A DNA stretch of 32,000 bases from Acaryochloris marina S15 (lineage in GTDB: Bacteria; Cyanobacteriota; Cyanobacteriia; Thermosynechococcales; Thermosynechococcaceae): positions 30,001 through 62,000 of the forward strand of contig NZ_CP064926.1 of NCBI RefSeq assembly GCF_018336915.1, read 5' to 3'. Positions 1,584 to 32,000 of the stretch are shown here, in pieces; the first letter of the stretch is position 1; the number at the start of each line of letters is the position of its first letter. The notes beneath the pieces are model-generated. The model did no database searches. It had not been told where the DNA came from and worked only from the letters and a program-made list of their open reading frames with translations. A program made the translations under genes and the position numbers.

Positions 1584-1609
1584 AAGAGATGTTTGATCCG
1601 CGATAACAG

Positions 1610-2290
1610 TTAAGGAAGTACTGGGGTATCCTCTACACTCAAGACTGGGGAAGCATGAGGGCTGAGAAGGTCCTGAAGCGCACCAGGTTTTTGGCAGGCT
1701 GCCATGGTTTTGACATGTTCCATTTCATCATCGCGAATGGCCACAAATACGTCGTAGAGCGAATCGATCTGAGGACGGCGTTCTTCGTCTCTGCGTGCCG
1801 TCTGGAACTCATCAAACATATATAAATCGCCATCACGGTAGTACTGCACAGCAATTTCAGGGGCAGATTGAGTCTTAAGCGTATCGGCTTCTAGCTTGAG
1901 AAACTTGTCATAGGAGGCATAGGCATGTTCTTCTACAAGTTCCATAAAACGATAGGCTGAGCGAGGTGAGACGAGGTACAGCCCTGCAATCACCCAGTAA
2001 TAAATCATGGCCGTAGTTTTTGCCAATAGGCGATCACCCCAAAAGTTTGCACCCCCTAGAGATTCCATAATCAACAGGTGGTGAAGTTCATTCCAAGATT
2101 CTGAAAAATGAATCTTTAGCCAGTCTGCCTTACGCCACAAGCCCAAGGTTTCATAGAAGTGCAACACTGACAGATAGGAAAAGTAGGGAACACGAGCTAC
2201 AGTCTCAAGCACGTAAAACCGTGGATAGGGTCGATTGGCGTAGACCTTATTAATCACGAGCACCAAAATACCAACTAAAAGACGAATCAT
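1610..2290 (-). CDS. ptox: Alternative oxidase / plastoquinol terminal oxidase (di-iron carboxylate quinol oxidase)
   Basis: Four iron-binding motifs occur in canonical order: LETVARVP, NELHHL, EEHAYASY, DDEMEH. The 226-aa size is typical of cyanobacterial PTOX. Confidence 0.85.
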   Translation of the reverse strand: MIRLLVGILVLVINKVYANRPYPRFYVLETVARVPYFSYLSVLHFYETLGLWRKADWLKIHFSESWNELHHLLIMESLGGANFWGDRLLAKTTAMIYYWVIAGLYLVSPRSAYRFMELVEEHAYASYDKFLKLEADTLKTQSAPEIAVQYYRDGDLYMFDEFQTARRDEERRPQIDSLYDVFVAIRDDEMEHVKTMAACQKPGALQDLLSPHASPVLSVEDTPVLP

Positions 2291-2367
2291 TGCAATAAAC
2301 CTCTAAGCAGCAAATAAATTAAAATCCCAGAACTCATACGTCATCCTGAGACTTGAAATCGAAATAG

Positions 2368-4668: not shown

Positions 4669-4795
4669 TCTTGCAAAATAGATAAGTTCAAACTGATATC
4701 TGGAGGTAAGCAAACAGTGCCACAGAGACGATCACTAATCGCGATAACACTTGCATCAGCCCTCCTTAGCCTAGGAGAGGCTACAGTAAAAATGC

Positions 4796-4811
4796 TTTGA
4801 CTTATGTCAAA
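4796..4811. promoter_or_regulatory. Perfect FNR/CRP-family-type palindrome TTTGAC-TTAT-GTCAAA in the norB/crp divergent intergenic region
   Basis: The 16-bp perfect inverted repeat was read directly. It is centred about 135 bp from the norB ATG (4668) and about 130 bp from the regulator start (4934). Half-site spacing matches the TTGAT-N4-ATCAA class. Confidence 0.5.
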
Positions 4812-4933
4812 AAATATCTTGAAAGATTCTTAATTTTGCGAACCCGATGAAGTACAGCCTGTTCGAAATAACCCAATGAAATCCTTAAGATAAGGAGAGG
4901 CCAAGCTGGATAAAAAATACTCTGGGGTAATGA

Positions 4934-5665
4934 ATGGACGAATCGCAACTCAGTCGGTGGTTATCATCGACCCTTATTTTCCAAGAACTCTCTTGCTCAC
5001 AGCTCCTGGCTTTAACCCAAATCGCTCAATTTCAAGTCTTCAAAAAAGGTGAACTCATTTTTAAGCAAGGACGACCGGCTACTAGGTTCTTTGTGATTAA
5101 AACAGGAAGAGTCAAAGTCTTTAAAATTTCTGTGAATGGTAGAGAGCAAATTCTGAATATCTTTGATGAGGGGGAAAATTTTGCTGAAGTGGCAGCGATA
5201 GATGGACTAGAGTTTCCTGCATCTGCAACCGCATTAGATCCGACAACAGTTGTCTTTTTCACTCGGACAGAATTTTTGGCATTGCTGCATCAATATCCCG
5301 ACATCGCCATCCATATCCTCAGTAGTTTGGCGAGACATACACGACATTTAGTTCAGGTCATCGAAGACCTCTCCTTTAAAGATGTGCCGCAGCGCCTGGC
5401 ATCTCACTTACTGAATTTGAGCAGCTATCAGACGGTCACTCCGTTGACTCAACAAGCAAATGTAGTCATGCTAAATTTAAGCAAACATCAGCTAGCAGCG
5501 GCTTTAGGTACGATACCGGCTACCCTCTCGCGGGCATTCTATCGCCTCAGCACTGACGACATCATTGCAGTCAAAGGAATGCAAATTGAGATCTTGGATC
5601 ACGACCGCCTCCTAGCGTTAAGTCAACTATCGAAATCTCAACCATCTCTAGACCAATGTCACTGA
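4934..5665 (+). CDS. Crp/Fnr-family transcriptional regulator (cNMP-binding-like domain + HTH); last 3 codons and stop supplied by the IS end
   Basis: It has an N-terminal beta-barrel effector domain (..RFFVIKTGRVKVFKISVNGREQIL..) and a C-terminal HTH (..LSKHQLAAALGTIPATLSRAFYRL..). It is divergent from norB. Confidence 0.8.
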   Translation: MDESQLSRWLSSTLIFQELSCSQLLALTQIAQFQVFKKGELIFKQGRPATRFFVIKTGRVKVFKISVNGREQILNIFDEGENFAEVAAIDGLEFPASATALDPTTVVFFTRTEFLALLHQYPDIAIHILSSLARHTRHLVQVIEDLSFKDVPQRLASHLLNLSSYQTVTPLTQQANVVMLNLSKHQLAAALGTIPATLSRAFYRLSTDDIIAVKGMQIEILDHDRLLALSQLSKSQPSLDQCH

Positions 5666-8113: not shown

Positions 8114-9443
8114 CAGGGTAAGCGCAAGAAAATCAAGCCTCTGAAAGGCTAGACTGTAAAGGAATAGAAGCGCCTAGAACCTTGAGCATATACGCTTCAT
8201 CCATGCTCGCCCGTTTTAGTTTTTGACGGGTACTTTTCTTAAAGGACGTTTCTTGATTGAGAAGGTTGATGCTCCAGCGTCTCAGGATGGCCATGTTTTC
8301 CGGCGCATGTCCTGTGCGAATGCGGCTAGCATCTTCGCTAAAGGTCACGTCTAAGACCCAGTGGAGTTGGTTCTCAATCGACCAATGCTGGCGGATGGCT
8401 TTGCCCAACTGCTGAGCATTTGGCGGTAGAGAACTGATATAAAACATCACCTCATAGGTGGTTTTGTTCCACAGATGTCGGGTCCGAGCGACCTTGACGA
8501 TGGTTTGCAAGCCCTTCCACTGCGCCTGCTTGTACAGAGGACCCATCTGTTGAAGGGACACGGCCCAAACTTGTCGTTTCTCGCGACGATGGTGCCCTGC
8601 TTCCACCCGCGCATCATAGCTGTGCTCAATGCACTTAAACTCATTCGCCTCAGCCGTTTCAAACCATTGCTCAACCTGCTCAAACAGCGTGGGATGATTC
8701 TCCTTGAGGGCCAGCACATAGTCAGCCTCTTTAGCTTGAATGTGGCGGGCAATCTCGTGCTGAGTTCCCATTGCATCAATGGTAATAATGCACCCGGCAA
8801 TGTCTAATAGCTCTAGCAGTGCTGGAATAGCGGTAATTTCGTTACTCTTGTCTGCAACTTTGACCTGTCCTAGAAATAACCGATACTCACTGGCCCAAGC
8901 ACTGACCAGATGCAATGCGGATTGGTCTTGATTGCGATCATAGGAACCTCTGAGTTGTTTGCCGTCAATCGGTATCACTTGAGCGCCGAGGGTTGTCACT
9001 ACCTGATCCAACCAGTGATTGAAACTCCGCTCAAAAGCGGAGGGGCAAATACGCTCAAACACTCGTCGATAGGTTTCTGCTGTCGGTATCCCGGACGGTA
9101 AGCTCAGAAAACTCGACAACCAATCCTGATGGCTCAGACCATAGGTTTCAATGTCTTCCCACCCTTGTGCTCCACCTAAACTTGCCAATAGTCCAATCAC
9201 GACGATGCTGACAAACGGATGCTGGACACCTTGGCCTCCACGTGGATCAGGCAAATCTTCAAAACACTCGGACAATTGTTGATAAGCCTGATCGCAATCA
9301 CTGGCAGGCAGGAGTGACGAGGATGAGTCAGTGGAAGCTGGTGAGGAAGGAGGCTTGCTGAATCCTGTAGCCATGGGGAAACCCTTTTAACAGAATGGAG
9401 TTCCATAGCATATTACAGCTTCATTTTTCTTGCGCTGCCCCTG
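8114..9443 (-). mobile_element. ISAs1-family insertion sequence, copy 1 (1330 bp), no target duplication
   Basis: The ends are CAGGGTAAGCGCAAGAAAA (8114-) and the reverse complement CAGGGGCAGCGCAAGAAAA (-9443), matching at 17/19. The flanks CCCCCGAAGC and GCGAATGGTG do not match each other. Confidence 0.85.
8133..9374 (-). CDS. ISAs1-family transposase (H-repeat-associated type)
   Basis: 413-aa ORF. The N-terminal ..CFEDLPDPRGGQGVQHPFVSIVVIGLLA.. is typical of the ISAs1 DDE_Tnp_1-associated domain. A second copy at 16932-18173 differs by 3 residues. Confidence 0.85.
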   Translation of the reverse strand: MATGFSKPPSSPASTDSSSSLLPASDCDQAYQQLSECFEDLPDPRGGQGVQHPFVSIVVIGLLASLGGAQGWEDIETYGLSHQDWLSSFLSLPSGIPTAETYRRVFERICPSAFERSFNHWLDQVVTTLGAQVIPIDGKQLRGSYDRNQDQSALHLVSAWASEYRLFLGQVKVADKSNEITAIPALLELLDIAGCIITIDAMGTQHEIARHIQAKEADYVLALKENHPTLFEQVEQWFETAEANEFKCIEHSYDARVEAGHHRREKRQVWAVSLQQMGPLYKQAQWKGLQTIVKVARTRHLWNKTTYEVMFYISSLPPNAQQLGKAIRQHWSIENQLHWVLDVTFSEDASRIRTGHAPENMAILRRWSINLLNQETSFKKSTRQKLKRASMDEAYMLKVLGASIPLQSSLSEA

Positions 9444-9631
9444 GCGAATGGTGATGAGTTTATTATCTGACATGCTTGAAAATATAATGAGTGTTTTTGG
9501 TAAGAACCGCGAAAGGCTAATCAGCGGTTTGGAATACTTCAATTTTCACTAGACTCACTGTACAGATTATTGAAAGCACATTAAGACGATAATTGATTCT
9601 TTCGAAATAATTCGCCAATAGTGTCTCCCCT

Positions 9632-9808
9632 TCAATGACCCCAAACCAGCATCACTCTCTCCCGCTCCAACCACCCCCCGATCATCTCTTCAATCCGCTC
9701 CATCGTCTCGCCAGGACGCAGCTCAATCACTTGCCAAATATCGAACGTGTCCTCAATCTCAACGGCGCACTCCCAGCAAAATTCAGGAGTAGAAAAAACA
9801 TCCCTCAC
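9632..9808 (-). other. Small ORF or 3' gene remnant ending ..ERIEEMIGGWLERERVMLVWGH*
   Basis: The minus-strand frame is open from the response-regulator stop (9880) down to 9632 but has no ATG. The first plausible start is GTG at 9808 (58 aa). Its C-terminal peptide recurs in degenerate form at 11587-11651. Confidence 0.3.
9638..9702. repeat. 65-bp segment paralogous to 11587-11651
   Basis: Shared blocks are ACCCCAAAC .. CTCTCCCGCTCCAACC .. ATCTC(T/C)TCAATCCGCTCCA. On the minus strand both encode ERIEEM..LERERV..VWG followed by a stop. Confidence 0.6.
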
Positions 9809-9879
9809 AAAAGGCTTCCCTGTTCCCGCTACCGTAATCCAGTCTTGCCTAGAGATGTTTTCAGAAACAACCAGGTGTT

Positions 9880-10632
9880 CTAGCTGACCTGCTGATCAGC
9901 CAAAATTTGTGATTGATCATATTTCAGTGCATAACCTACACCACGAATCGTATGAATCATCACTGATTCTCCTAGATTCTCTTTGAGTTTATGACGCAAA
10001 CGTGACATGTGAACCTCGACTGTTCGCGTATCAACTATGGACTCTTCACCATATCCCCATACTTTCTGTAAAAGCTCCTGACGAGAAACAGCTTCTCCAA
10101 GTCGGCTAGCCAATAGTTCCAATAAACTAAATTCCATCTGGGTGAAGAAGAGACGTGCTCGGTCGTGGTAAATCTGCCGTTTATTTCTATCAATGTAGAG
10201 TGAGCCAATCTCAATCACACCAGGGATTTGATACTTCGATATTTTTACAGCATCCAGTCTGCGGAGAATAACCCGAACACGAGATTCTAGTTCTTTAGGT
10301 GAAAAGGGCTTGACCATATAATCATCAGCACCCATTTCTAAGCCAGTAATACGATCTGCTGTCCCTGACAGAGCGGTCAGCATAATAATCGGAATTCTCG
10401 ATATTTTGCGGACGGCTTGACAAACACCATAACCATCCAGTTTCGGCATCATCACATCTAGTACAATCAAGTCGGGATCTTGATGCTCAAAAACTTCTAG
10501 TGCTTCTATGCCATCAGCAGCAGTGAAGACCTTATAGCCCACCATAGTTAGCCGGGTTGATAATATTCGTCGAACCGAAGTTTCATCATCAACGACTAAA
10601 ATTGAATGCTGTTGGTGACTAGGATTATTCAT
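9880..10632 (-). CDS. OmpR-family response regulator, RpaB/Ycf27-like
   Basis: It has a REC domain (..ILVVDDE..DLIVLDVMMPKLDGYGVC..IIMLTALS..DYMVKPFSPKELE..) and a winged-helix output domain (..VEVHMSRLRHKL..IHTIRGVGY). No cognate histidine kinase lies nearby. Confidence 0.85.
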   Translation of the reverse strand: MNNPSHQQHSILVVDDETSVRRILSTRLTMVGYKVFTAADGIEALEVFEHQDPDLIVLDVMMPKLDGYGVCQAVRKISRIPIIMLTALSGTADRITGLEMGADDYMVKPFSPKELESRVRVILRRLDAVKISKYQIPGVIEIGSLYIDRNKRQIYHDRARLFFTQMEFSLLELLASRLGEAVSRQELLQKVWGYGEESIVDTRTVEVHMSRLRHKLKENLGESVMIHTIRGVGYALKYDQSQILADQQVS

Positions 10633-16912: not shown

Positions 16913-18242
16913 CAGGGTAAGCGCAAGAAAATCAAGCCTCTGAAAGGCTAGACTGTAAAGGAATAGAAGCGCCTAGAACTTTGAGCATATACGCTTCATC
17001 CATGCTCGCCCGTTTTAGTTTTTGACGGGTACTTTTCTTAAAGGACGTTTCTTGATTGAGAAGGTTGATGCTCCAGCGCCTCAGGATGGCCATGTTTTCC
17101 GGTGCATGTCCTGTGCGAATGCGGCTAGCATCTTCGCCAAAGGTCACATCTAAGACCCAGTGGAGTTGGTTCTCAATCGACCAATGCTGGCGGATGGCTT
17201 TGCCCAACTGCTGAGCATTTGGCGGTAGAGAGCTGATATAAAACATCACCTCATAGGTGGTTTTGTTCCACAAGTGGCGGGTCCGAGCGACCTTGACGAT
17301 GGTTTGCAAGCCCTTCCACTGCGCCTGCTTGTAGAGAGGACCCATCTGTTGAAGGGACACGGCCCAAACTTGTCGTTTCTCGCGACGATGGTGCCCTGCT
17401 TCCACCCGGGCATCATAGCTGTGCTCAATGCACTTAAACTCATTCGCTTCAGCCGTTTCAAACCATTGCTCAACCTGCTCAAACAGCGTGGGATGATTCT
17501 CCTTGAGGGCCAGCACATAGTCAGCCTCTTTAGCTTGAATGTGGCGGGCAATCTCGTGCTGAGTTCCCATTGCATCAATGGTAATAATGCACCCGGCAAT
17601 GTCTAATAGCTCTAGCAGTGCTGGAATAGCGGTAATTTCGTTACTCTTGTCTGCAACTTTGACCTGTCCTAGAAATAACCGATACTCACTGGCCCAAGCA
17701 CTGACCAGATGCAATGCGGATTGGTCTTGATTGCGATCATAGGAACCTCTGAGTTGTTTGCCGTCAATCGGTATCACTTGAGCGCCGAGGGTTGTCACTA
17801 CCTGATCCAACCAGTGATTGAAACTCCGCTCAAAAGCGGAGGGGCAAATACGCTCAAACACTCGTCGATAGGTGTCTGCTGTCGGTATCCCGGACGGTAG
17901 CCTCAGAAAACTCGACAACCAATCTTGATGGCTTAGACCATAGGTTTCAATGTCTTCCCACCCTTGTGCGCCACCTAAACTTGCCAATAGTCCAATCACG
18001 ACGATGCTGACAAACGGATGCTGGACACCTTGGCCTCCACGTGGATCAGGCAAATCTTCAAAACACTCGGACAATTGTTGATAAGCCTGATCGCAATCAC
18101 TGGCAGGCAGGAGTGACGAGGATGAGTCAGTGGAAGCTGGTGAGGAAGGAGGCTTGCTGAATCCTGTAGCCATGGGGAAACCCTTTTAACAGAATGGAGT
18201 TCCAAAGCATATTACAGCTTCATTTTTCTTGCGCTGCCCCTG
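16913..18242 (-). mobile_element. ISAs1-family insertion sequence, copy 2 (1330 bp) with 10-bp target duplication
   Basis: It has the same ends as copy 1. It is flanked by GCCAGGGGGG at 16903-16912 and 18243-18252. Confidence 0.9.
16932..18173 (-). CDS. ISAs1-family transposase, copy 2
   Basis: 413 aa. It differs from copy 1 at three residues: FLSLP/FLRLP, TAETY/TADTY, TFSED/TFGED. Confidence 0.85.
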   Translation of the reverse strand: MATGFSKPPSSPASTDSSSSLLPASDCDQAYQQLSECFEDLPDPRGGQGVQHPFVSIVVIGLLASLGGAQGWEDIETYGLSHQDWLSSFLRLPSGIPTADTYRRVFERICPSAFERSFNHWLDQVVTTLGAQVIPIDGKQLRGSYDRNQDQSALHLVSAWASEYRLFLGQVKVADKSNEITAIPALLELLDIAGCIITIDAMGTQHEIARHIQAKEADYVLALKENHPTLFEQVEQWFETAEANEFKCIEHSYDARVEAGHHRREKRQVWAVSLQQMGPLYKQAQWKGLQTIVKVARTRHLWNKTTYEVMFYISSLPPNAQQLGKAIRQHWSIENQLHWVLDVTFGEDASRIRTGHAPENMAILRRWSINLLNQETSFKKSTRQKLKRASMDEAYMLKVLGASIPLQSSLSEA

Positions 18243-21475: not shown

Positions 21476-22961
21476 GGGCGTATTTAGCGGATCGGGGATG
21501 CCTTAGTTTTCGGAATGGTCACCTCTGGGAATAAGGAGTCAAACCGTTCATTGACCCAGGCAATTCTCAAGATCAGTAAATGGTTGAAACCATCCTCACT
21601 CCAGCGCATGCCAACTCCCTTAAAGCGCTGCTGAATCAACCACTTGCATGCACTTTCAACCATTCCTGACCCGAGAGGAATCTGTTGCTGTTCAAAGTGC
21701 CGATAACGGATGTGGTTATGATGGCGTTGGAAATAAGCCTGCACCTGGAGCAACGTTGAAAAAGACTTTCCCGTTAACAGTTGTGAGTGAATCAATATCG
21801 TCAAGGACCGTAATACAAGTAGGTGTTGCCCGTGTCGCAATTGGTGTCGCCAGTGCCGGAACCAGGCTTGGGCTTGAGCAGAGCGGGCATCTCCAAACAT
21901 CGCTTTAGTTGCTCGTGCCAGATGGCCTGCTGAATGAAAAAAGTCGAGGACTGCCACAGCACAATGAGAGAACAAGGTGCGATAGACTCGCCAGAAGCCT
22001 CGTCCCCCATCACTGAGCCAGATGACTTTTGGAGCAGATTCAAAGTCTTGTTTGTGAGCTTCGAGTTGAAGTAAAGGGATGAACTGGTCGATATCGCCCA
22101 ATACTGCCACCAGTCTTCGACGCAGTAATTGGGGGACCTCCTTTTTAGCTCGGGTAACCCGTGTTCCCAGGCGAGCTAAGATGGCGACTTTGACTTCTCG
22201 CCACTGGATTTTTCCCTTGGGTGAGTTCGGGGTGGGGCGAAAGGGGACCATCACACCATCGGCGGCAATGGCCAAAGGTAGAGCAGATAACATCTCTGAA
22301 ATCGCTTCACAAGGGGCCTGAGTCCCTGATGATTGAGCGTTGAGTTGAGCTTCTAATTCCTGCTGAGCTTTGTTACCCACGGATTGCACCCAGTTCCACA
22401 AACTGGATGGACTCACGGATAGACCACTCCACTGACCCAGCATCCAACTGGCCAGTTCATAGGGCATGAACAGACTCAACAAGCAGCCCAGACGCACCAG
22501 TTCTTCGCTGCTGTGCTGATAGGGGGCAATCCCAATGGCTTGATCCAGGGGAGTCAACAGACTGCCTGGACATCCTTTGGGACAACGGCCCACCCGTCGC
22601 TTTCAAGAGATAGTGCCTACCAGTGTCTGCATCTGACGAGATTCCCATCCCTTCGAATGTAAGCGGGTTCCGCAGGTAGTACATACAGGCCATACAAATA
22701 CTGCTTTCGCGCGCCTTGAGAGTTCATCCTCCAGAAGACAGCGAGCTAGAAACAAGCCCATTTGCAGAACGATATAAACCATCTGACTCAGGCTGGTTGA
22801 TACTTTGAGTGCTTCAGTTTGTTCTAGAAATTCGTCATGGGCTAGCACGGTTAGCAATTGCGATGGTAGGGTCATGATAGTTTTTTGGTTCGGGTACAGG
22901 ATCTATTGTCCTTGACCCGTTTTTCTTTGAGCCATGCATCCCCGATCCTTTGCTTACGCCC
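21476..22961 (-). mobile_element. ISKra4-like insertion sequence, copy A (1486 bp) with 9-bp target duplication
   Basis: The terminal IRs are GGGCGTA..GGATCGGGGATGC. It is flanked by ATAGCGACT at 21467-21475 and 22962-22970. The family name is assigned from memory of transposase features and is tentative. Confidence 0.8.
21484..22875 (-). CDS. Transposase (ISKra4-like) as two same-frame ORFs separated by one TGA
   Basis: ORFs 22875-22603 (90 aa) and 22593-21484 (369 aa) are in the same frame. The TGA (22605-22603 on the minus strand) lies inside a Cys-rich segment: ..CTTCGTRLHSKG..GTIS*KRRVGRCPKGC.. Confidence 0.75.
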
Positions 22962-22975
22962 ATAGCGACTTTTTG

Positions 22976-23227
22976 ATGCTATGTCACGTCTATATCGGTT
23001 TTTTTCAAAGGGTTTATAGTCGTAAATCTTTAGAAATATTCTGTATCCCTTTCGGTTCTAAGACCTAAGTTTTTTATCTGGTTAATATAAATATCCTAAA
23101 TGCTAGGTCAAAAGCTAGGTCTGACTCTGGAATCTTAAAAATACTGAAGATTGTAGAAAAATAAAAAGCTATGTCAATGCTATGTCATGAGGATTTATTT
23201 TGAAATGCTAGGTCAAAAGCTAGGTCT
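22976..23227 (+). repeat. Array of ATGCTAGGT / AGCTAGGTC / (A/T)GCTATGTCA motifs 3' of the ParB-like gene pair
   Basis: The 25-bp unit AAATGCTAGGTCAAAAGCTAGGTCT occurs identically at 23098-23122 and 23203-23227. ATGCTATGTCA is at 22976-22986 and 23177-23187, and AGCTATGTCA is at 23167-23176. All are on the same strand. Confidence 0.8.
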
Positions 23228-23242
23228 TGGTCCAACAAAAAC

Positions 23243-24337
23243 CTATAACTTCTTAAACGGCTGATTGGTAACAGACCATGCAATGAGGGCATCCGAGCAA
23301 CGCAAGGGATCAGGTTCAGCACAGTAACAGGGGCATTCCAGTTCATCTATCAAGATAAAAAGAGATGGATCGATCAGGTTAATCATAACTACAGGATCGT
23401 TTGCATCTGTTGTCCCAGACAAGCAGTTTTCTGTAATCGCTCTTAATGTCTCTAAGTGAAAGTCCTCTCCATGCGATGTATAAAAAGACAAGGCATTCAT
23501 AGCATTTTCAGGAATTGCAGGAGGCCATTGATCTCGTGATTCTAAAAAGACTAAAAACACTCCAATCTCAGGAGGCAAGAGTTTTTGAAATTTCATAGAA
23601 GGAGGATCGCCACAAAATAAATAATGTGACTTGCCAAGCTTCCAGACATCACCTTTGTTAACTTTCCCAGGTTGAGTTTCAGCGATTTTTGGAGTAGCTG
23701 TTTTCTTCTTTGTGCGTTTTCGTTTAGGTATTTTTCCCTCTTCCGACTGTGGTCTGTTTCGGATATTTGTTGTGTCCATCTCAAAAGTAGTGCCGCCTCT
23801 AATAGCCATTCGGGTATTAGGATCTATCTCATCTAGTCCATCACTATCTATCTGAGAATAGGTAGCAGACAACTCGCGTCTTACCGTTCCAACAAATTTA
23901 CCGCTTACTCCGCAACGTCTTCCAATCTCTCGGTCACTCCACTTTTTCCATTCACGGTCGCGCACCAGTCTATTAACAGCACGTCTTTTATCTGCGTTCG
24001 TTCTTCTTAGGCCATGTGCTGCATTGGCCCCTACTGAGTGCAGAACGGCATCTCGCAGTTCTCCGGGAAAGACTTCCGCAGAAATTTCCTTCTCGTCAAT
24101 GGCTTCTTTAGCCCGGACCCTATGAAATCCATCAGCTAACCAATAGTCCTTACCGTCATAGTAAATTACGACTGGGGGAAAAGTAGCTCCTTGCTTCATG
24201 TCCTCGGCATAGTCTGCTACCACCTCTTCGTAAAGCTTTGAGCGAGGCTGAGTTCCGCCATCCATGCGAATTTTAGCTATCTCAATTGATTCGATAGAAG
24301 ATTCTGAGGATTCGCTCAGCGGCTTTGGAGAAGGCAT
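23243..24337 (-). CDS. ParB/Srx-fold N-terminal domain protein with HTH-like middle, K-rich linker and degenerate methyltransferase-like C-terminus
   Basis: ..IEIAKIRMDGGTQPR..FPPVVIYYDGKDYWLADGFHRVRA.. is the DGxHR ParB-like nuclease-domain motif. It is followed by ..ANAAHGLRRTNADKRRAV..WSDREIGRRCGVS.., then ..KRKRTKKKT.., then ..GDVWKLGKSHYLFCGD.. Confidence 0.75.
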   Translation of the reverse strand: MPSPKPLSESSESSIESIEIAKIRMDGGTQPRSKLYEEVVADYAEDMKQGATFPPVVIYYDGKDYWLADGFHRVRAKEAIDEKEISAEVFPGELRDAVLHSVGANAAHGLRRTNADKRRAVNRLVRDREWKKWSDREIGRRCGVSGKFVGTVRRELSATYSQIDSDGLDEIDPNTRMAIRGGTTFEMDTTNIRNRPQSEEGKIPKRKRTKKKTATPKIAETQPGKVNKGDVWKLGKSHYLFCGDPPSMKFQKLLPPEIGVFLVFLESRDQWPPAIPENAMNALSFYTSHGEDFHLETLRAITENCLSGTTDANDPVVMINLIDPSLFILIDELECPCYCAEPDPLRCSDALIAWSVTNQPFKKL

Positions 24338-24446: not shown

Positions 24447-25121
24447 TCAATTCACAGATGATTGTTGATTGATACGGTTATCAATCAACATATCAACCCA
24501 TATTCTCAAAAAATAATCTGAGATTAACGGCCCAAAGGTGGTTGAGTCCATGTTGAGGGCAGAAACTAAGTCAAAATTCTTGGCTACCAATGGTTTTACA
24601 TTGCTTTGTGGTTTCCCAATCTTATTCATCGCAACCACCATATTGTAGAGATCGGTCACTCTCTGCTCTCTTGACATATGCACATGGTTTGCATGGGTTC
24701 CACAATGAATAGCGATTTCTTCATCACTCCATTTTTGCCAGACTGGATGACCAATGAGTTTAAAGACATTCCTATCTAAATCAGCCTGTGTGAGCTTCAA
24801 CTCACTTTCTGTACTGGCTTCCATAGCGTATAACACTGCATCTTGCTGATTCCCTTGCCAGACATCAGCTAAAATTTCTAATTCACCTATGGCTTTCTTG
24901 GCATGAAATCGATGAAAACCATCTACCAGCCAGCGTTTTGACCCATTGTAGAAAACGATTACAGGTGGAAATTTATCTCCTTGGCACATGGCTTCTGCAT
25001 ATTCTTCAACCACATGACTATGCACCTGGCAGCGTGGTTGGACCTCTTCATCAAGCGTGATCAAAGACAGTCTAATTATTTCCAAGTCCTGAAAACCATT
25101 GCTTGATAAGTCTCTCTTCAT
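24447..25121 (-). CDS. Second, more divergent ParB/Srx-fold domain protein (paralogue of 23243-24337)
   Basis: ..LSLITLDEEVQPR..FPPVIVFYNGSKRWLVDGFHRFHA..WQKWSDEEIAIHCGT.. runs parallel to the neighbouring protein. The likely ATG is at 25121 (MKRDLSS); the longest ORF starts at TTG 25139. Confidence 0.7.
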   Translation of the reverse strand: MKRDLSSNGFQDLEIIRLSLITLDEEVQPRCQVHSHVVEEYAEAMCQGDKFPPVIVFYNGSKRWLVDGFHRFHAKKAIGELEILADVWQGNQQDAVLYAMEASTESELKLTQADLDRNVFKLIGHPVWQKWSDEEIAIHCGTHANHVHMSREQRVTDLYNMVVAMNKIGKPQSNVKPLVAKNFDLVSALNMDSTTFGPLISDYFLRIWVDMLIDNRINQQSSVN

Positions 25122-25268
25122 CCACAACTCCAAGGGCAAGGGAAAATCTGGGAGAATTCACAAAATACTCCGTTTTTCTATCAAAGCACAGCAGTTGAAA
25201 GTTCCATATACCCACATAGGATTTATTTACAGTTAAGGAATATTTGACTATGCGGTGGCCTAAAGAAC

Positions 25269-25332
25269 GCTATGTGGATGCTAGGTAGATGCTAGGTTTA
25301 CTCCCCCAACAAATGCTAGGTTAATGCTAGGT
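25269..25332 (+). repeat. Four copies of ATGCTAGGT in 55 bp in the divergent promoter region between the ParB-like gene and the STAND gene
   Basis: ATGCTAGGT occurs at 25278-25286, 25289-25297, 25313-25321 and 25324-25332. A GCTATGTG lies at 25269-25276. All are on the plus strand. Confidence 0.85.
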
Positions 25333-25989
25333 GCAAGTAAAGAATTCAATGAATTTTACTCAAGCGGCAAAGATCGTCAATAGCATCTCTATGCAAGAAA
25401 AAGGACGGAAGCAAACTGAAGCTGAAATCATTGCGCTGAAAGCAGCCTGGGACAAAATTGATTACGCATTAGCGATTAAAAATTCTAAAGCTAACTACAG
25501 CGAGAATTATATACGCAGTGATGCTGGTCGAAAGCTTTGGCTCATGCTGTCTGGGCATTTTGGTGAGAAGATTACCAAAATGTCTCTCAGAAGATACTTT
25601 GAGAGACATCCTGAACTCTTAGATCCTGACAAAAGGAATCGAAAAATCTTAGGAGGGTATCCTCCTGATATTGAAAATTTCTTAGGTCGTCAGAGTGAAG
25701 CAGAAGAACTCAAACAATGGTCGAAGACGATTCAATGTGTATGTATTGATGGGATTGCTGGGATTGGTAAGACCTGTTTAGCAGCAAAAGCGATAAACGC
25801 AATATTCCACCAGCCTTCCCAATTCGAACACTATATTTGGCTACCTGTCCATTACAAACCTAGCCTCAATGAATTACTGGACTCCCTAATAGAGCATTTG
25901 GGGGCTACAAAGGGAGAAGAAACTCAACTAAACCGTAGTTCTATACTCATCCAATATTTACAACGGCACAGATGCCTAATTGTATTGGA

Positions 25990-27475
25990 GGGCGTAAGCA
26001 AAGGATCGGGGATGCATGGCTCAAAGAAAAACGGGTCAAGGACAATAGATCCTGTACCCGAACCAAAAAACTATCATGACCCTACCATCGCAATTGCTAA
26101 CCGTGCTAGCCCATGACGAATTTCTAGAACAAACTGAAGCACTCAAAGTATCAACCAGCCTGAGTCAGATGGTTTATATCGTTCTGCAAATGGGCTTGTT
26201 TCTAGCTCGCTGTCTTCTGGAGGATGAACTCTCAAGGCGCGCGAAAGCAGTATTTGTATGGCCTGTATGTACTACCTGCGGAACCCGCTTACATTCGAAG
26301 GGATGGGAATCTCGTCAGATGCAGACACTGGTAGGCACTATCTCTTGAAAGCGACGGGTGGGCCGTTGTCCCAAAGGATGTCCAGGCAGTCTGTTGACTC
26401 CCCTGGATCAAGCCATTGGGATTGCCCCCTATCAGCACAGCAGCGAAGAACTGGTGCGTCTGGGCTGCTTGTTGAGTCTGTTCATGCCCTATGAACTGGC
26501 CAGTTGGATGCTGGGTCAGTGGAGTGGTCTATCCGTGAGTCCATCCAGTTTGTGGAACTGGGTGCAATCCGTGGGTAACAAAGCTCAGCAGGAATTAGAA
26601 GCTCAACTCAACGCTCAATCATCAGGGACTCAGGCCCCTTGTGAAGCGATTTCAGAGATGTTATCTGCTCTACCTTTGGCCATTGCCGCCGATGGTGTGA
26701 TGGTCCCCTTTCGCCCCACCCCGAACTCACCCAAGGGAAAAATCCAGTGGCGAGAAGTCAAAGTCGCCATCTTAGCTCGCCTGGGAACACGGGTTACCCG
26801 AGCTAAAAAGGAGGTCCCCCAATTACTGCGTCGAAGACTGGTGGCAGTATTGGGCGATATCGACCAGTTCATCCCTTTACTTCAACTCGAAGCTCACAAA
26901 CAAGACTTTGAATCTGCTCCAAAAGTCATCTGGCTCAGTGATGGGGGACGAGGCTTCTGGCGAGTCTATCGCACCTTGTTCTCTCATTGTGCTGTGGCAG
27001 TCCTCGACTTTTTTCATTCAGCAGGCCATCTGGCACGAGCAACTAAAGCGATGTTTGGAGATGCCCGCTCTGCTCAAGCCCAAGCCTGGTTCCGGCACTG
27101 GCGACACCAATTGCGACACGGGCAACACCTACTTGTATTACGGTCCTTGACGATATTGATTCACTCACAACTGTTAACGGGAAAGTCTTTTTCAACGTTG
27201 CTCCAGGTGCAGGCTTATTTCCAACGCCATCATAACCACATCCGTTATCGGCACTTTGAACAGCAACAGATTCCTCTCGGGTCAGGAATGGTTGAAAGTG
27301 CATGCAAGTGGTTGATTCAGCAGCGCTTTAAGGGAGTTGGCATGCGCTGGAGTGAGGATGGTTTCAACCATTTACTGATCTTGAGAATTGCCTGGGTCAA
27401 TGAACGGTTTGACTCCTTATTCCCAGAGGTGACCATTCCGAAAACTAAGGCATCCCCGATCCGCTAAATACGCCC
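25990..27475 (+). mobile_element. ISKra4-like insertion sequence, copy B (1486 bp), inverted relative to copy A, with its own 9-bp target duplication
   Basis: It is flanked by TGTATTGGA at 25981-25989 and 27476-27484. The encoded ORFs are identical in amino-acid sequence to copy A. Confidence 0.9.
26076..27467 (+). CDS. Transposase (ISKra4-like), two same-frame ORFs separated by TGA at 26346-26348
   Basis: 26076 and 26358 are in the same frame (the difference, 282, is divisible by 3). The sequence reads ATC TCT TGA AAG CGA CGG GTG GGC CGT TGT. Confidence 0.8.
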
Positions 27476-28179
27476 TGTATTGGATGAAGTTGATTTAATG
27501 CTGCAGACGAATCAAGAGACCAGTGAATATGAGGTTTTCTTCAGGCGAATAATTGAGGAAAAACATCAAAGTTGCGTTTGGCTGACTGCTAATTGTTTTC
27601 CTGAAGGCTTATCCAACTACAAAAACATGGGTTTCCCGTTTGAAAGCTTGCACTTAGGCCCACTCCAAGCTAACGAAGTACAGAAGCTCGTTGAGTCACA
27701 TGGAATTACATTTGATGCCGACTGGGAAAAGATGGTCCACACTTGTATGGGCAATCCACTTCTCCTGCATTCTGTTCTTAGAAAGGTCTCAAAGGTACTT
27801 GGAGGGCAGGCTGACTTAGTTAACCAAAAAACAAGTCTGGCACTAAACGAATTTGAGTACCTACTTAATAAACTATTTACCAATACCAATGATATTAAAG
27901 AATTAGAGATCATCGTACTTTGCACAATTGCATCTATTGATCGAACTCAAAGCGGTATATCGTTATTAGCATTAACTCAAAACATCCTAGAAAATCATCC
28001 AGATATATCTGAGCTGGATATATTCAATAGCCTTGAACGCCTTCAAAACCATAATTTACTGAGTCTTGTAACAGATACAGGATCAATAGAGATTGTGATG
28101 GTAGACATAATTAAGAAGTATATTTTACGGAATTATATAAATAATGACCAAAATACCTCATCTATCTTGACCTAGATCA

Positions 28180-29913
28180 GTGTCTTACTGTATTAATCCA
28201 AATTGCACTCAACGAGAGAATCCACCTGGCATTGATTTATGCCAAGGGTGTGGCACCTCTTTGCTGATCAAAGATAAGTACAGGCTCTTGTGCCCCATAC
28301 GCTCTTTGGATACGAGCAAACAGCTTTACCCCTCTGAGACTGAAATTTTTGAGTGCGTTGATACTACTGGAAACCCTAAAGATCCCCCAAACACTCCAAA
28401 AATTTTCAAAATCCTCAATACAGAAGACCCTAAGCTTAAGCAACTTGCGAAGAGGGAAGCCTATGCTCTGATGGGATTATATGAATACCCTAATACGCCT
28501 AAAGTTCACATCCATGACTATTTCGAGTATCAGGATGAGCATTTCTCAGACACGCTGATCTGCACTGCCATTGAGAAAATTGAAGGGGTAGATCTAAAAG
28601 TATGGCTTGCTGAGCATGGCCAGGCTAACTCTACACAGCTCAAGGATTGGTTAGGGCAACTATGTGAAATTCTGGCAGTTGTTCATGAGAAAAATCTATT
28701 CCATCGAGATATCAAGCCTTCCAATATCATGATCCGACCGGATGGCAGGTTAGTATTGATTGATTTTGGGACTGTTCGGAAAATTACCAATACCTATATC
28801 GCCAAATTGAGCGGCCCAGACAACAAATCACCGATACAAGGGGCTACAGATGTGACGATGGTACGCACATTTGGTTATTCTCCCCCGGAACAGCTCTATG
28901 GCAAAGCTATGCCGCAATCCGACTTCTATGCCTTGGGGCGAACGATGATTCACTTAGCCACGGGAGTCCACCCCAATAATTTACCGGATGACGATGATCG
29001 ATTGTCATGGCGAGATCAGGCTGAGAGTATCGATCTAGACCTTGCTGACTTGATTGATCGCCTTTGTGATCCTATTCCCACTGAACGCCCCAAGAATACC
29101 GCTGAAATCCTGGCGGATCTCGCCCATCCTCCTCGAACAACCGCTGTCTCTATACGACCAAACTTCCTTCAGTCAAAATGGATTTATGTAGCTATAGGTA
29201 TGGGTATTGCAGTAGCCATTAACTGGGGCGTGATCCACTATCTCCAACCCGGTGAGATGTTGTCTGCTCGACAACATCTCACTCAAGGTTTGTCTGAGCT
29301 TAGGGTTCATAATTTAGCTGCAGCTCAAGCTTCTCTCTCTGAATCCATTCGGCTTAATCCGAAGAACGAAGAAGCCCATTACTATTTAGCGTTTACTTGT
29401 GCTGAAGTTCGTAATCATGATTGCGCCCTAAATCATTACAAAAAGGCCATTGACCTCAATCCCAATGACTGGGAAAGCCAATTTGCCTTGGCGAGTCTCT
29501 ATGAAAAACTAGAAAAGGAAGACCAGGCTAAACCCCTACTGGAGTCTGCCCATAAGATTGATCCCAAAGCACCTGAACCGCTCAATAACCTAGCTCGTTT
29601 GGCACTTTTAGAAGGTAATGCAAGCGAAGGTCAACAACTGGCCCAAAAAGCGCTCAAGCTAACAAAAAGGCCCATTATGAAGTCCATCATATACAAGAAC
29701 TTAGGCTGGGCTGCTCTCCTCCAAAAGGATCAGAAACTGGCCTATCAGTATCTGAATAAATCGATTGAGTTCAACCCTGAACTCCCTGATCCCCATTGTC
29801 TCCTCAATCAGATAGAGCCTAGTCTTGAGTATCGAGAAGCCTGCATTAGACTAATTTCAGAGCGATCAGAGGGCCGTCAATGGCGCAAGGTATTATTGGA
29901 GAAAGAAAACTAA
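28180..29913 (+). CDS. Hanks-type Ser/Thr protein kinase with N-terminal 4-Cys zinc ribbon, one TM helix and C-terminal TPR repeats
   Basis: The zinc ribbon is CINPNCTQRENPPGIDLCQGCG. The catalytic loop HRDIKPSN is at about 28702-28725, with DFG at 28762-28770 and SPPEQ following. The TM helix is WIYVAIGMGIAVAINWGVIHYL. TPR-like repeats follow (..AHYYLAFTCAEVRNHDCALNHYKKAIDLNPND..). The GTG start lies 4 nt after the STAND stop. Confidence 0.85.
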   Translation: MSYCINPNCTQRENPPGIDLCQGCGTSLLIKDKYRLLCPIRSLDTSKQLYPSETEIFECVDTTGNPKDPPNTPKIFKILNTEDPKLKQLAKREAYALMGLYEYPNTPKVHIHDYFEYQDEHFSDTLICTAIEKIEGVDLKVWLAEHGQANSTQLKDWLGQLCEILAVVHEKNLFHRDIKPSNIMIRPDGRLVLIDFGTVRKITNTYIAKLSGPDNKSPIQGATDVTMVRTFGYSPPEQLYGKAMPQSDFYALGRTMIHLATGVHPNNLPDDDDRLSWRDQAESIDLDLADLIDRLCDPIPTERPKNTAEILADLAHPPRTTAVSIRPNFLQSKWIYVAIGMGIAVAINWGVIHYLQPGEMLSARQHLTQGLSELRVHNLAAAQASLSESIRLNPKNEEAHYYLAFTCAEVRNHDCALNHYKKAIDLNPNDWESQFALASLYEKLEKEDQAKPLLESAHKIDPKAPEPLNNLARLALLEGNASEGQQLAQKALKLTKRPIMKSIIYKNLGWAALLQKDQKLAYQYLNKSIEFNPELPDPHCLLNQIEPSLEYREACIRLISERSEGRQWRKVLLEKEN

Positions 29914-29965
29914 AGCTTAAGGAATATTTTCTGCTAATCTATTCCTTAATTAAAGAATAATTTGT

Positions 29966-30856
29966 ATGGATAAATTTTTTTCTAGGAATTATTTAGGGTT
30001 AGTAACTTTGGGGGGAGTTGCAATTCAAACCCTGGTTCCTACTATTCCTGTTATTGCTGAACCGATAAAAAAATGTCCACCCGTTATCCGTTCACTGAAG
30101 ACGAATCGGCTTTACTGTGCTCATGAGTTAAAGGTGCTTCAACGGAAGAGAATGGCGGAAAAAGATGCAGGTTTTCTCTGTCTCCTAGTCCGAGCGCTTA
30201 TTCCCGCAAATGACTGGATTAAAACGAATCAATGCTTCCCAAAAACCAATTTTTCCAGTGAAACGGGGAAAAAGATTATTCCCAGGCCCAAGGGATCGAG
30301 AACGGCATTCAAACTGTTGAAGCCATTGGGAAACATACAACTCACACCTCAACCGATCATCGCTTGGCAACCCGTTCCCCAGGCCCGATATCGCATCACG
30401 GTCGAACATGGGGGTCGATGGCTATGGTCTCATACAACCAAAACCACAGAAATCCCCCTCCCTGCTTCTAAGCCGTTAAAGGAGGGTAACACCTATAAAA
30501 TCAGTGTCGTTGCCTTCAGGGATAACCAACCGATTGCGGAGGATATCACCACGATTCGGTTAGTCAAATCTCAACAGATCCAAGGCATTGACAATCTGAT
30601 TCAGCAAGCCCGCAACCTTGCTCCAGATCCTCTTAGTCGAGGATTAGACAAGGCGATGATGCTATACCATTTGGGGCTATTAGATGCTGCTGTTAAGGAG
30701 TTACGCGCCCTCACCCAATATCAAGAGCCAGAGGTGTACTCCCAATTGGGCTTAATTCACCAGGAAGCGGGACATCAGGACATGGCTCAAGACTATTTTG
30801 ACAAAGCCTCAGAACTCGCTAAGCGTCCATCTAAGCCCATCTCACAGTTGAACTAG
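29966..30856 (+). CDS. Secreted/periplasmic protein with beta-rich middle and C-terminal TPR-like helices
   Basis: An N-terminal hydrophobic signal (..YLGLVTLGGVAIQTLVPTIPVIAEP) is followed by ..PIIAWQPVPQARYRITVEHGGRWLWSHTT..GNTYKISVVAF.. The C-terminus reads ..AMMLYHLGLLDAAVKELRAL..YSQLGLIHQEAGHQDMAQDYFDKA.. It overlaps the CHAT gene end by 15 bp in convergent orientation. Confidence 0.6.
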   Translation: MDKFFSRNYLGLVTLGGVAIQTLVPTIPVIAEPIKKCPPVIRSLKTNRLYCAHELKVLQRKRMAEKDAGFLCLLVRALIPANDWIKTNQCFPKTNFSSETGKKIIPRPKGSRTAFKLLKPLGNIQLTPQPIIAWQPVPQARYRITVEHGGRWLWSHTTKTTEIPLPASKPLKEGNTYKISVVAFRDNQPIAEDITTIRLVKSQQIQGIDNLIQQARNLAPDPLSRGLDKAMMLYHLGLLDAAVKELRALTQYQEPEVYSQLGLIHQEAGHQDMAQDYFDKASELAKRPSKPISQLN

Positions 30857-32000
30857 GACGTAATTAGCCCAATAGTAGGGATGGCCATAGTCTGATCTTA
30901 AAAGCTTCAATTGAGCCTGTCTCAACCGTTCATGCATCGACCGGGTTTTGTTGATATCGGCGTAAAACGCTCGGGACAACAGTACAGACGCAGCAGCATC
31001 CGCTGACCACAGGGAGGCGACCGTATTTCTCGCCCCCGATTGAGCGGATAGACCCGCTAATCCCAACAATGATCTCGGATCCCCTGCGGCACTGTGGCAG
31101 GCGCTTAAAAACAGCAGATCCAGTCCTTCGCCATCCGCTTCTAGAACTCCACTAATCTCTTGGACAGTCAAGGGCCGGTCCCACGCTAACAGAAAGGTCT
31201 GAGTTGGATCTGAGCTAAATTGCCCGTGGGTACTTAAGTGAAGGATCTTGGCGGTGGGCCGTGCCACATTATCCAATAAGTTATCGTGGGTAAAATCTTG
31301 ATTGAGTAAAAGCTTCGCATCCGGGTATTGAGTCTGAATCGCATCGACTTCTTGGGCGACTTCTGGCAAGGGTTCCAATAAGGTTTCTTCTAAGCTGGGG
31401 CTTTGGGTAGAGACTCCCCCGATAACGACGCCAGGCTGATTGGATGAGTTGTAGGAGGTTTTCACATAACCATTCGACAGGGCGATGGGGTTGCGTTCAA
31501 TCAGATACCGTTCACCATCATGGAGAAACCCCATTGGAATATTTTGGAGCGGCCCATTCAGGTGAAATTTGATGGGGACATTTTCTGGTATCAGTTTTTG
31601 GGATAGGGCTGGGGCCAGAATAAGCTGGTGCAACGATTGGGCGAGGGGCAGGTATTGCTCTGGGGTGGTGTCAAAGAACCGTTTATCCTGAATCATCGTC
31701 GTTATTTCAGCGGTGATGCGCTGGAGCTGCTCGGGGTCCACGGAATAGTGACGATCTCCCACGATCACCGTCGTTTGGTCAGCTAGATCCAGGATTTGCA
31801 CGACCACTTCACCAATGGGGTTTTGGTCGGCTAGAGGAGCTAGATTGGTCTCCCCACATCGAAGGTAGTTTTGTAATTCAGCGAGTCTCAAGCGTTGATT
31901 GGTTTGAGCTACGAGCTTTAAATTGGGGTTTTCTGATTTGAGCAGTAGGCCCATATACTGTTGGTATACGGGTTCCACTTCGGCTTTAAAGGAGAACTGC
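30842..32000 (-). CDS. CHAT-domain (caspase-like) protease, C-terminal part; N-terminus lies beyond the right window edge
   Basis: The caspase-type dyad is present in context: ..ILHLSTHGQF.. (His codon about 31226-31228) and ..LLFLSACHSAAGD.. (Cys codon about 31097-31099). The C-terminus ..YGHPYYWANYVLV.. is typical of CHAT. The frame stays open from 31978 to position 32000 (..QFSFKAEVEPVYQQ..). Confidence 0.8.
   Translation of the reverse strand, partial: QFSFKAEVEPVYQQYMGLLLKSENPNLKLVAQTNQRLRLAELQNYLRCGETNLAPLADQNPIGEVVVQILDLADQTTVIVGDRHYSVDPEQLQRITAEITTMIQDKRFFDTTPEQYLPLAQSLHQLILAPALSQKLIPENVPIKFHLNGPLQNIPMGFLHDGERYLIERNPIALSNGYVKTSYNSSNQPGVVIGGVSTQSPSLEETLLEPLPEVAQEVDAIQTQYPDAKLLLNQDFTHDNLLDNVARPTAKILHLSTHGQFSSDPTQTFLLAWDRPLTVQEISGVLEADGEGLDLLFLSACHSAAGDPRSLLGLAGLSAQSGARNTVASLWSADAAASVLLSRAFYADINKTRSMHERLRQAQLKLLRSDYGHPYYWANYVLVQL

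Follow-up and report, generated by a model that had tools for sequence, protein, structure and literature searches.

Four genes around a STAND NTPase and a CHAT protease in Acaryochloris marina S15 as the probable end of a conserved envelope secretion-and-signalling module

Does a CHAT protease gene lying next to a STAND NTPase gene mark a bacterial suicide module? The question is raised by a 32,000-nucleotide stretch of Acaryochloris marina S15 (contig NZ_CP064926.1, positions 30,001 to 62,000; hereafter the window), in which the open reading frame (ORF) list, junction reads and repeat analysis resolve four genes at 25331-32000: a STAND NTPase, a kinase with a transmembrane (TM) segment and a TPR array, a small accessory protein (prot3) and a partial, convergent CHAT protease. 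The original prediction read these genes as the switch, sensor and executioner of a cell-death system. We consider it probable, at about 60%, that they form one end of a module of approximately seven genes conserved in cyanobacteria, in which an export arm and a signalling arm serve envelope secretion and signalling. The module is real and conserved, while the reading of its protease as a cytoplasmic executioner is not supported. The features of the locus are as follows:

25349..25989, plus strand: STAND NTPase gene, 5' part (HTH_VMAP-M9/NB-ARC), ending in the middle of Walker B (ORF list, reconstruction, Pfam)
25990..27475, plus strand, 1486 bp: ISKra4-family insertion sequence (IS) inside the NTPase gene (repeats, junction reads, NCBIfam transpos_ISKra4 at 222.9 bits, empty site in locus L001)
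27485..28175, plus strand: STAND NTPase gene, 3' part, with the remaining NB-ARC, a helical domain and a winged-helix domain, and without sensor repeats (in-frame reconstruction, AlphaFold2)
28180..29913, plus strand: Hanks-type Ser/Thr kinase with a 4-Cys zinc-ribbon prefix, kinase domain, one TM segment and a predicted extracytoplasmic TPR array (Pfam, NF045510, motifs)
29966..30856, plus strand: prot3, with a signal peptide, a Cys-containing N-terminal region, an FN3-like beta-sandwich and a short TPR module (alignment, weak fn3, AlphaFold2/Foldseek)
30842..32000, minus strand: signal-peptide-TPR-CHAT protease gene, 3' 385 codons (approximately 795 aa when complete; open frame, Pfam CHAT)

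The order of these genes is preserved well beyond Acaryochloris. When one genome per species was scanned with aligned Acaryochloris NTPases, 18 loci were returned, 17 of them from Nostocales (NTPase approximately 30% identical); neighbours were found by searching six-frame ORFs with the window proteins. The kinase adjoins the NTPase in 17/17 Nostocales loci and prot3 lies beside the kinase in 15/17, the other two contigs ending in or just past the kinase gene; where the contig is long enough, a TPR-CHAT gene always converges on prot3 (13/13). The gene directly upstream of CHAT encodes TpsA in 10 of these loci, and in 3 a ShlB gene stands between the two. The order of the kinase, prot3 and the convergent CHAT gene is the same as in the window; most Nostocales loci have the NTPase and kinase genes pointing away from each other, and L009 has them co-directional, as in Acaryochloris. 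Nostocales module proteins are only 20-39% identical to their Acaryochloris counterparts, flanking genes and NTPase orientation differ as well, and median pairwise identities among the Nostocales loci themselves are 60% for the NTPase, 40% for prot3 and 51% for CHAT. The nearest sequence relatives of the locus are found in Acaryochloris, where four paralogous loci bear out the neighbourhood and loci L021, L022 and L028 share one layout: two ParB-like genes, the NTPase, kinase and prot3 genes in one direction, and CHAT, ShlB and TpsA facing them (NTPase identity 50% in L022 and 48% in L028). With L010 being a Cylindrospermum plasmid, both lineages carry the module on plasmids. The premise that the four genes belong together is thereby upheld: they stay neighbours across the Acaryochloris paralogues and the Nostocales.

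The right-hand partner changes the meaning of the cluster. The CHAT gene ends at 30842, overlapping prot3 by 15 bp, and its frame is open to base 32000. The convergent orientation, the overlap and the His/Cys motifs of the original prediction stand, with the qualification that the window holds the C-terminal 385 of approximately 795 residues. Pfam CHAT (PF12770) matches at 166 bits, and with both the His (HLSTHG) and Cys (LSACHS) motifs present the fragment keeps the predicted catalytic dyad. The full-length proteins of L021, L022 and L028 (795-797 aa) consist of a signal peptide, a TPR-rich region of approximately 500 aa and the CHAT domain. The Acaryochloris orthologue begins M-KHLSKILLLSLLVIPSVRA/AD, a Sec-type signal peptide, and the Nostocales sequences carry equivalent segments; N-terminal hydrophobic leaders are also seen on prot3, TpsA and ShlB. 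If these signal judgements are right, CHAT would act in the periplasm or at the cell surface. In L021, L022 and L028 it is the final gene of a minus-strand TpsA-(ShlB/FhaC)-CHAT operon, whose other products are a protein of approximately 830-850 aa with a two-partner secretion (TPS) domain and a ShlB/FhaC transporter (POTRA_2 plus ShlB/Omp85 barrel). The TPS domain (153.6 bits) and ShlB (90.4 bits, with POTRA_2) are those of a type Vb system as predicted from sequence; the L021 TpsA gene is split in two pieces. The original prediction had considered that the CHAT gene might belong to a rightward operon unrelated to the NTPase and kinase. Such an operon does exist in the orthologous loci, but because it accompanies the STAND/kinase pair it does not count as unrelated.

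On the signalling side, the kinase starts 4 nt beyond the NTPase stop. Its 4-Cys prefix (residues 3-28) scores 30.1 bits against NF045510 (cutoff 24) and its kinase domain 80.2 bits against Pkinase (cutoff 31.7), with HRD at residue 175, DFG at 195 and SPPE at 235, and TPR families match in addition; the zinc-ribbon kinase-TM-TPR architecture described earlier is borne out. A single hydrophobic segment (approximately residues 333-354), with Arg/Lys residues just before it, lies between the kinase domain and the TPRs, and one is found at the equivalent position in every full-length Nostocales kinase homologue scanned (11 loci). If the topology is judged correctly, the TPR array would face the periplasm and the kinase domain the cytoplasm. 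The PADLOC PD-T4-6 model PDLC04044 matches residues 1-322 (E = 1.5e-85). Because these models also call housekeeping PASTA kinases, including a kinase in all S. thermophilus genomes with minimal phenotype (PMC11514479), the match, though strong, says little specific about defence and is read as kinase homology only. PD-T4-6 is a single-gene Ser/Thr kinase anti-phage system, whereas the window kinase has a TM-TPR receptor architecture and belongs to a conserved module of several genes.

The third protein, prot3, has the signal-peptide-like N-terminus that had been noticed, while its supposed TPR-like tail proved to be a few repeats behind an FN3-like domain. In the window copy the TPR match (residues 255-286) is below threshold. 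Across the family, the alignment shows invariant Cys, Trp and Pro columns, with an invariant Cys in the N-terminal region; fn3 matched weakly in 9/21 members, and TPR matches were found too. The AlphaFold2 model searched with Foldseek gives FN3 plus TPR; the model is poor at residues 1-128 (predicted local distance difference test, pLDDT, below 50), and our structural claim covers the remainder. The family is unnamed and comprises 108 cluster representatives at E <= 1e-10, mostly of 280-390 aa. Although prot3 occupies the position held by DUF928 in related loci, it was rejected as a divergent DUF928 (PF06051), as 0/21 family members match even at E <= 1.

The NTPase gene is interrupted, as had been stated. 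The 1486-bp ISKra4-family element has 27-nt imperfect terminal inverted repeats and is flanked by a 9-bp target duplication, TGTATTGGA, at 25981-25989 and 27476-27484. Excision of the element with one target copy joins 25331-25989 to 27485-28175 in frame (449 codons, 1350 nt). Walker A reads GIAGIGKT, and because Walker B (CLIVLDEVD) is regained on removal of the IS, the element sits within Walker B; by this reconstruction, the NTPase is disabled in the window. An uninterrupted allele, of the kind the original prediction suggested looking for, is P0001 on L001 (443 aa, 99% identical), where the IS site is empty. The longest ORF starts at GTG 25331; the alternative ATG 25349 is probably the true start because it matches the intact allele.

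The reconstructed protein is a P-loop STAND core (NB-ARC 53.8 bits, cutoff 23.5; NACHT 41.6 bits, cutoff 26.7) and carries no C-terminal repeats, its 449 residues stopping after the winged helix. PF26355 (HTH_VMAP-M9) matches the first approximately 100 residues of P0001, a confidently modelled domain of four to five helices with a conserved sequence pattern. The AlphaFold2 model (pLDDT 79.7) finds plant NLR resistosomes, Apaf-1 and CED-4 as top Foldseek matches (E approximately 1e-11 to 1e-9), followed by ORC/Cdc6, and it has the nucleotide-binding, helical and winged-helix order of the NB-ARC STAND class. Hydropathy of NTPases across the loci revealed no signal peptide or TM segment, the only above-threshold segments being the P-loop strand. 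Profile hidden Markov model searches thus uphold the NB-ARC/NACHT, Pkinase, TPR and CHAT assignments of the original prediction, the prot3 TPR match being sub-threshold.

We propose that these parts form two arms. The export arm would consist of a TpsA-like TPS-domain exoprotein, approximately 850 aa long, usually a ShlB/FhaC-type TpsB transporter in the outer membrane, and the Sec-signal TPR-CHAT cysteine protease; the signalling arm would comprise the exported FN3-like/TPR protein, the inner-membrane Hanks kinase and the cytoplasmic, sensor-less STAND NTPase. CHAT most likely processes or releases TpsA, as LapG acts on CdrA and SphB1 on FHA. The periplasmic TPRs of the kinase, together with prot3, may monitor or restrain the exported CHAT and/or TpsA cargo, and the kinase would pass that state across the membrane to the NTPase, its putative cytoplasmic output in the manner of AfsK/AfsR, which probably switches transcription through its helix-turn-helix (HTH) domain. 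Domains, predicted topology signals and gene order can be read directly from the loci; the binding and phosphorylation partners and the biological role we infer, with adhesion, competition and envelope surveillance as candidates for the last.

Two known arrangements resemble this proposal in part. In AfsK-AfsR of Streptomyces, the Ser/Thr kinase AfsK targets the STAND-type transcription regulator AfsR, whose SARP DNA-binding domain is accompanied by C-terminal TPRs; AfsK itself is not a TPR receptor. The window locus would be similar in that a Hanks kinase is genetically paired with an N-terminal helical (HTH-type) plus NB-ARC protein, whereas its NTPase lacks C-terminal TPRs and the TPR receptor is on the kinase. 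The second arrangement is type Vb secretion as in CdrA/CdrB with LapG-LapD (Pseudomonas) and FhaB/FhaC with SphB1 (Bordetella), which share with the orthologous loci a TPS-domain TpsA and a ShlB/FhaC POTRA-barrel transporter. The likeness extends to an exported cysteine protease and to an inner-membrane protein linking the periplasm to cytoplasmic signalling. The module protease, however, is a caspase-fold CHAT with TPRs rather than a LapG-type enzyme or subtilisin, its cleavage of TpsA is hypothetical, the place of a cyclic di-GMP receptor at the membrane is taken by a Hanks kinase with TPRs predicted to be periplasmic, and its TpsA is short (approximately 850 aa). The protease gene is also encoded within the TPS operon, which is unusual because the proteases that process TPS proteins, such as LapG for CdrA and SphB1 for FHA, are usually encoded outside it (PMC5422565).

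The locus appears to define a conserved, apparently undescribed cyanobacterial module, in which two-partner secretion and a periplasmic caspase-fold protease would be coupled to a receptor kinase and an NLR-like NTPase. A literature search on CHAT with TPS, ShlB, DUF928 or CHASE2 found no description of it, although coverage of the literature was partial and this absence is not proof. The module offers a handle on two questions, namely the role of secreted cyanobacterial CHAT proteases and the control of a STAND protein that itself carries no sensor.

More distant TPR-CHAT relatives (27-33% identity) share the TPS and ShlB neighbours and place them beside other receptors:

L026: TPS/TPS-CHAT-DUF928, then a CHASE2-histidine kinase
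L027: ShlB-CHAT-DUF928, then a CHASE2-cyclase
L029: TPS-CHAT converging on DUF928 and CHAT-CHASE2, the same convergent layout as in the window
L025 and L030: ShlB/TPS/TPS adjoining CHAT

On a Pleurocapsa chromosome, an HTH_VMAP-M9/NB-ARC NTPase gene overlaps a Pkinase-CHASE2 gene by 4 nt, with no CHAT gene nearby. Given the distant CHASE2 loci and the Pleurocapsa pair, the window cluster is best read as a variant of a common plan, in which an export arm goes with a small exported protein and a membrane receptor whose extracytoplasmic sensor is joined to an exchangeable cytoplasmic output; here the STAND NTPase would partner the kinase output. It has in common with the TPS/TPR-CHAT/DUF928/CHASE2-receptor clusters the TPR-CHAT family, the TPS/ShlB neighbours and the position of a small exported protein followed by a receptor. 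It differs in having an FN3-like/TPR protein in place of DUF928 and a TPR array in place of the CHASE2 sensor, and for output it has a Ser/Thr kinase and, as a separate protein, a STAND NTPase rather than a histidine kinase, cyclase or CHAT domain. No description of the CHASE2-receptor clusters was found in the literature searched. The module may accordingly matter as one case of a broader theme, in which TPS-CHAT, a small exported protein and a membrane receptor are combined with exchangeable outputs.

Two kinds of additional gene accompany these export loci. In L025 (Aphanothece hegewaldii), a ParD/ParE toxin-antitoxin pair (9329-9909) lies between the TPS genes and the TPR-CHAT gene. A redox gene, encoding an oxidoreductase dependent on flavin adenine dinucleotide (FAD) or a cytochrome P450, stands directly upstream of TpsA in Acaryochloris and Nostocales loci and could be a further conserved module member:

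L021, 19020-20489
L028, 14127-14792
L014, 1-1524
L022, 13378-14001
L026, 1594-6672

On the other flank, the module in the window is bordered by two divergent genes and a set of repeats:

23243..24337 and 24447..25139, minus strand: two ParB_N-like genes, divergently transcribed (weak Pfam ParB_N match)
25278..25332, no strand assigned: four exact ATGCTAGGT copies immediately 5' of the NTPase ATG (pattern search)

The ParB-like pair lies beside the module in every Acaryochloris copy (L001, L002, L021, L022 and L028) and not in Nostocales. A second ATGCTAGGT cluster (23100-23225; two exact copies plus variants) is located just 3' of the second ParB-like gene, so that the clusters flank the pair; the pattern matches 16 times against 6.3 expected, with the exact copies clustered. 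In L022, a 50%-identical paralogue, a variant repeat, AAGCTATGT, is found at the same two positions (392-457 and 2548-2627). Kinase/NTPase intergenic regions of Nostocales, where ParB-like genes are absent, contain no ATGCTAGGT-like multi-copy repeats. The repeats therefore go with the ParB-like genes, and for the same reason a role as NTPase operators was rejected. ATGCTAGGT and AAGCTATGT are candidate parS-like or operator sites co-evolving with the locus. The Nostocales NTPase is instead followed by a gene of approximately 1200 aa, judged by eye to be CyRepA-like, with a Toprim/primase-like N-terminus and a P-loop helicase-like region, and a coiled-coil gene of approximately 470 aa and a tyrosine recombinase gene also occur past the NTPase:

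L004, 12266-15796, and equivalents in 15 Nostocales loci: CyRepA-like gene

Identities among the Acaryochloris paralogues are mosaic. The ParB-like genes and the NTPase co-vary, as do prot3 and CHAT, while the catalytic half of the kinase is 80-99% identical throughout. Compared with the window, L001 is 98-100% identical in the ParB-like genes, NTPase and kinase catalytic half and falls to 64% in the kinase TPRs and 59% in prot3. L028 has the reverse pattern, with the NTPase at 47-50%, prot3 at 82% and CHAT at 96%. This implies recombination between Acaryochloris copies, with a putative breakpoint near the kinase TM segment.

Several observations weigh against the proposed secretion-and-signalling module. 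In this genome the rightward operon would lie beyond the window end and is predicted from the 92%-identical L021. Signal peptides and the TM segment were called from sequence and hydropathy rather than by a dedicated predictor. Several Nostocales loci have no ShlB gene within 10 kb, and L001 and L002 carry a NACHT-pentapeptide gene between prot3 and CHAT, or replacing CHAT. The NTPase co-varies with the ParB-like genes and not with the kinase, and the mosaic shows no signal of NTPase-kinase co-evolution. DNA binding by the NTPase N-terminus is a weak point: it is suggested by the Pfam name and a LuxR/sigma-r4-like pattern, and a sequence profile search of the PDB with the HTH_VMAP-M9 region gave no significant match. 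As regards L001 and L002, the inserted gene (L001 6667-9237; L002 15584-19731) encodes an NNH3-NACHT-pentapeptide-repeat protein, a further STAND protein that is unrelated to the first and has entered the module after prot3. No CHAT gene is found before the contig end in L001, and L002 has just a 225-aa CHAT fragment beyond the NNH3-NACHT gene.

Among the alternatives, an extracellular weapon for conflict or adhesion fares best, though we regard it as unlikely. TpsA would then be a contact-dependent toxin or an adhesin directed at neighbours or grazers, CHAT would mature it outside the cell, and the kinase-STAND pair would only regulate expression. TPS systems are known to serve adhesion and contact-dependent inhibition (PMC5422565). 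The conservation of the TPS domain and ShlB/FhaC transporter with CHAT, the multiple diverged Acaryochloris paralogues with their mosaic recombination, and the ParDE pair within one related locus all fit this reading. However, neither a toxin nor an immunity domain could be recognised in the approximately 850-aa TpsA or beside its gene, and TpsA is much shorter than CdiA or FhaB. The anatomy is, besides, the same as in the proposed secretion-and-signalling module, from which this reading differs in biological role alone.

A more ambitious and rather doubtful possibility extends the signalling arm into a receptor kinase-to-NLR pathway. Here the TPR ectodomain, with prot3 as an FN3/TPR co-receptor, would read a surface or periplasmic event, and phosphorylation by the kinase would gate oligomerisation of the NB-ARC STAND protein; the event could be the exported CHAT acting on the TPS exoprotein or on a foreign target. 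If true, this would be a prokaryotic counterpart of plant signalling through surface receptor kinases and NLRs, and the first kinase-gated bacterial STAND switch.

Least favoured of the readings that take in all four genes is the intracellular abortive-infection or cell-death system of the original prediction, which we now hold to be improbable. It combines a STAND switch, the kinase TPRs as sensor and a cytoplasmic, caspase-like CHAT executioner. In its favour, STAND NTPases as well as CHAT proteases are found among the components of prokaryotic immune systems (PMC7159879, PMC8195603). The synteny of the four genes fits too, as do the plasmid location, the abundance of IS elements and the inactivation of the locus here, and PADLOC returns the PD-T4-6 match for the kinase and a weak PDC-S27 match for the NTPase. 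Against this, the CHAT orthologues have signal peptides and sit within a TPS operon, the PD-T4-6 models pick up housekeeping PASTA kinases as well (PMC11514479), and the TPRs of the kinase, being on the far side of the TM helix, would be unable to sense cytoplasmic phage proteins. Related TPR-CHAT loci have CHASE2-histidine kinase or CHASE2-cyclase receptors instead of a kinase and STAND protein.

The logic of a STAND-driven protease also finds little footing in the proteins themselves. With Avs/NLR-like defence proteins and the CED-4/Apaf-1 apoptosome the NTPase shares the NB-ARC fold, Walker A/B, helical domain and winged helix, and like CED-4 it is without a repeat sensor. It differs from them in lacking a fused effector or C-terminal sensor, and the adjacent caspase-like protease is predicted to be exported and shares no adaptor with it. 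PADLOC on the module proteins gave no Avs or other strong STAND-system match, the NTPase matching just PDC-S27, weakly, and the architecture is not of Avs type. A shared adaptor was sought by comparing NTPase residues 1-110 with the kinase, prot3, CHAT, ShlB, TpsA and ParB-like proteins (phmmer --max), and none was found (best E = 0.38); the STAND-caspase logic of effector-associated domains (Kaur et al. 2020/2021) was rejected, as the NTPase N-terminus has no counterpart in the other module proteins. With an exported CHAT, an NTPase without signal peptide or TM segment and no common adaptor, it would be topologically implausible for the STAND protein to activate CHAT directly in the manner of an apoptosome. 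Type III-E CRISPR TPR-CHAT (Csx29/Craspase) and SAVED-CHAT were likewise rejected: the sole match was SAVED_CHAT over the CHAT core (E = 0.0063), no cas genes were found in the operon loci examined (L021, L022, L028), and the CHAT orthologues have signal peptides and TPS neighbours. A CHAT gene beside a STAND NTPase is therefore no sign, taken alone, of a suicide module; here the protease is predicted to be exported and to belong to a secretion operon.

Very improbable, finally, is that the NTPase belongs with the ParB-like genes and repeats in plasmid maintenance or regulation and adjoins the kinase and CHAT by mere plasmid-backbone synteny: identities of the ParB-like pair and NTPase co-vary in Acaryochloris without the kinase, ATGCTAGGT repeats flank the pair and abut the NTPase start, CyRepA-like and recombinase genes lie beside the Nostocales NTPase and the NTPase model also resembles ORC/Cdc6, but NTPase-kinase adjacency is kept in Nostocales without ParB-like genes, the two genes overlap by 4 nt on the Pleurocapsa chromosome and are just 4 nt apart in the window, and NB-ARC/NLR structures rank above ORC in the fold search.

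The genomic setting agrees with the IS-rich accessory or plasmid-type region described in the original prediction. Plasmid pMB05 of Acaryochloris sp. 'Moss Beach' holds a 92%-identical copy of window 27485-32000, and elsewhere in the window there are at least three more transposase genes, together with NorB-like oxidase, alternative oxidase, Crp, response-regulator and sigma-factor genes, a content in keeping with an accessory replicon rich in IS elements. A second, inverted and essentially identical copy of the ISKra4-family element is found at 21476-22961 with its own duplication, ATAGCGACT. One in-frame TGA is common to both copies (26346-26348 for the right-hand one) and divides the transposase frames (26076-27467 and 21484-22875) into ORFs of 90 and 369 aa; the copies are nonetheless near-identical and have intact target duplications. 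This could reflect recent transposition from a functional master, stop-codon readthrough or transposase supplied in trans.

Two further features of the window lie apart from the module. A different IS transposase gene (413 aa; DDE_Tnp_1 plus DDE_Tnp_1_assoc) is present twice on the same strand, at 8133-9374 and 16932-18173; the two copies are approximately 8.8 kb apart, with response-regulator and sigma-factor genes between them, and may represent a composite-transposon-like arrangement. At 295-5665, four genes encode a YwiC-like protein, an alternative oxidase (AOX), a NorB-like quinol-type oxidase with a cytochrome c-like N-terminal domain and a divergent Crp-family regulator, a respiratory or nitric oxide-handling set that is unusual for a plasmid-type region.

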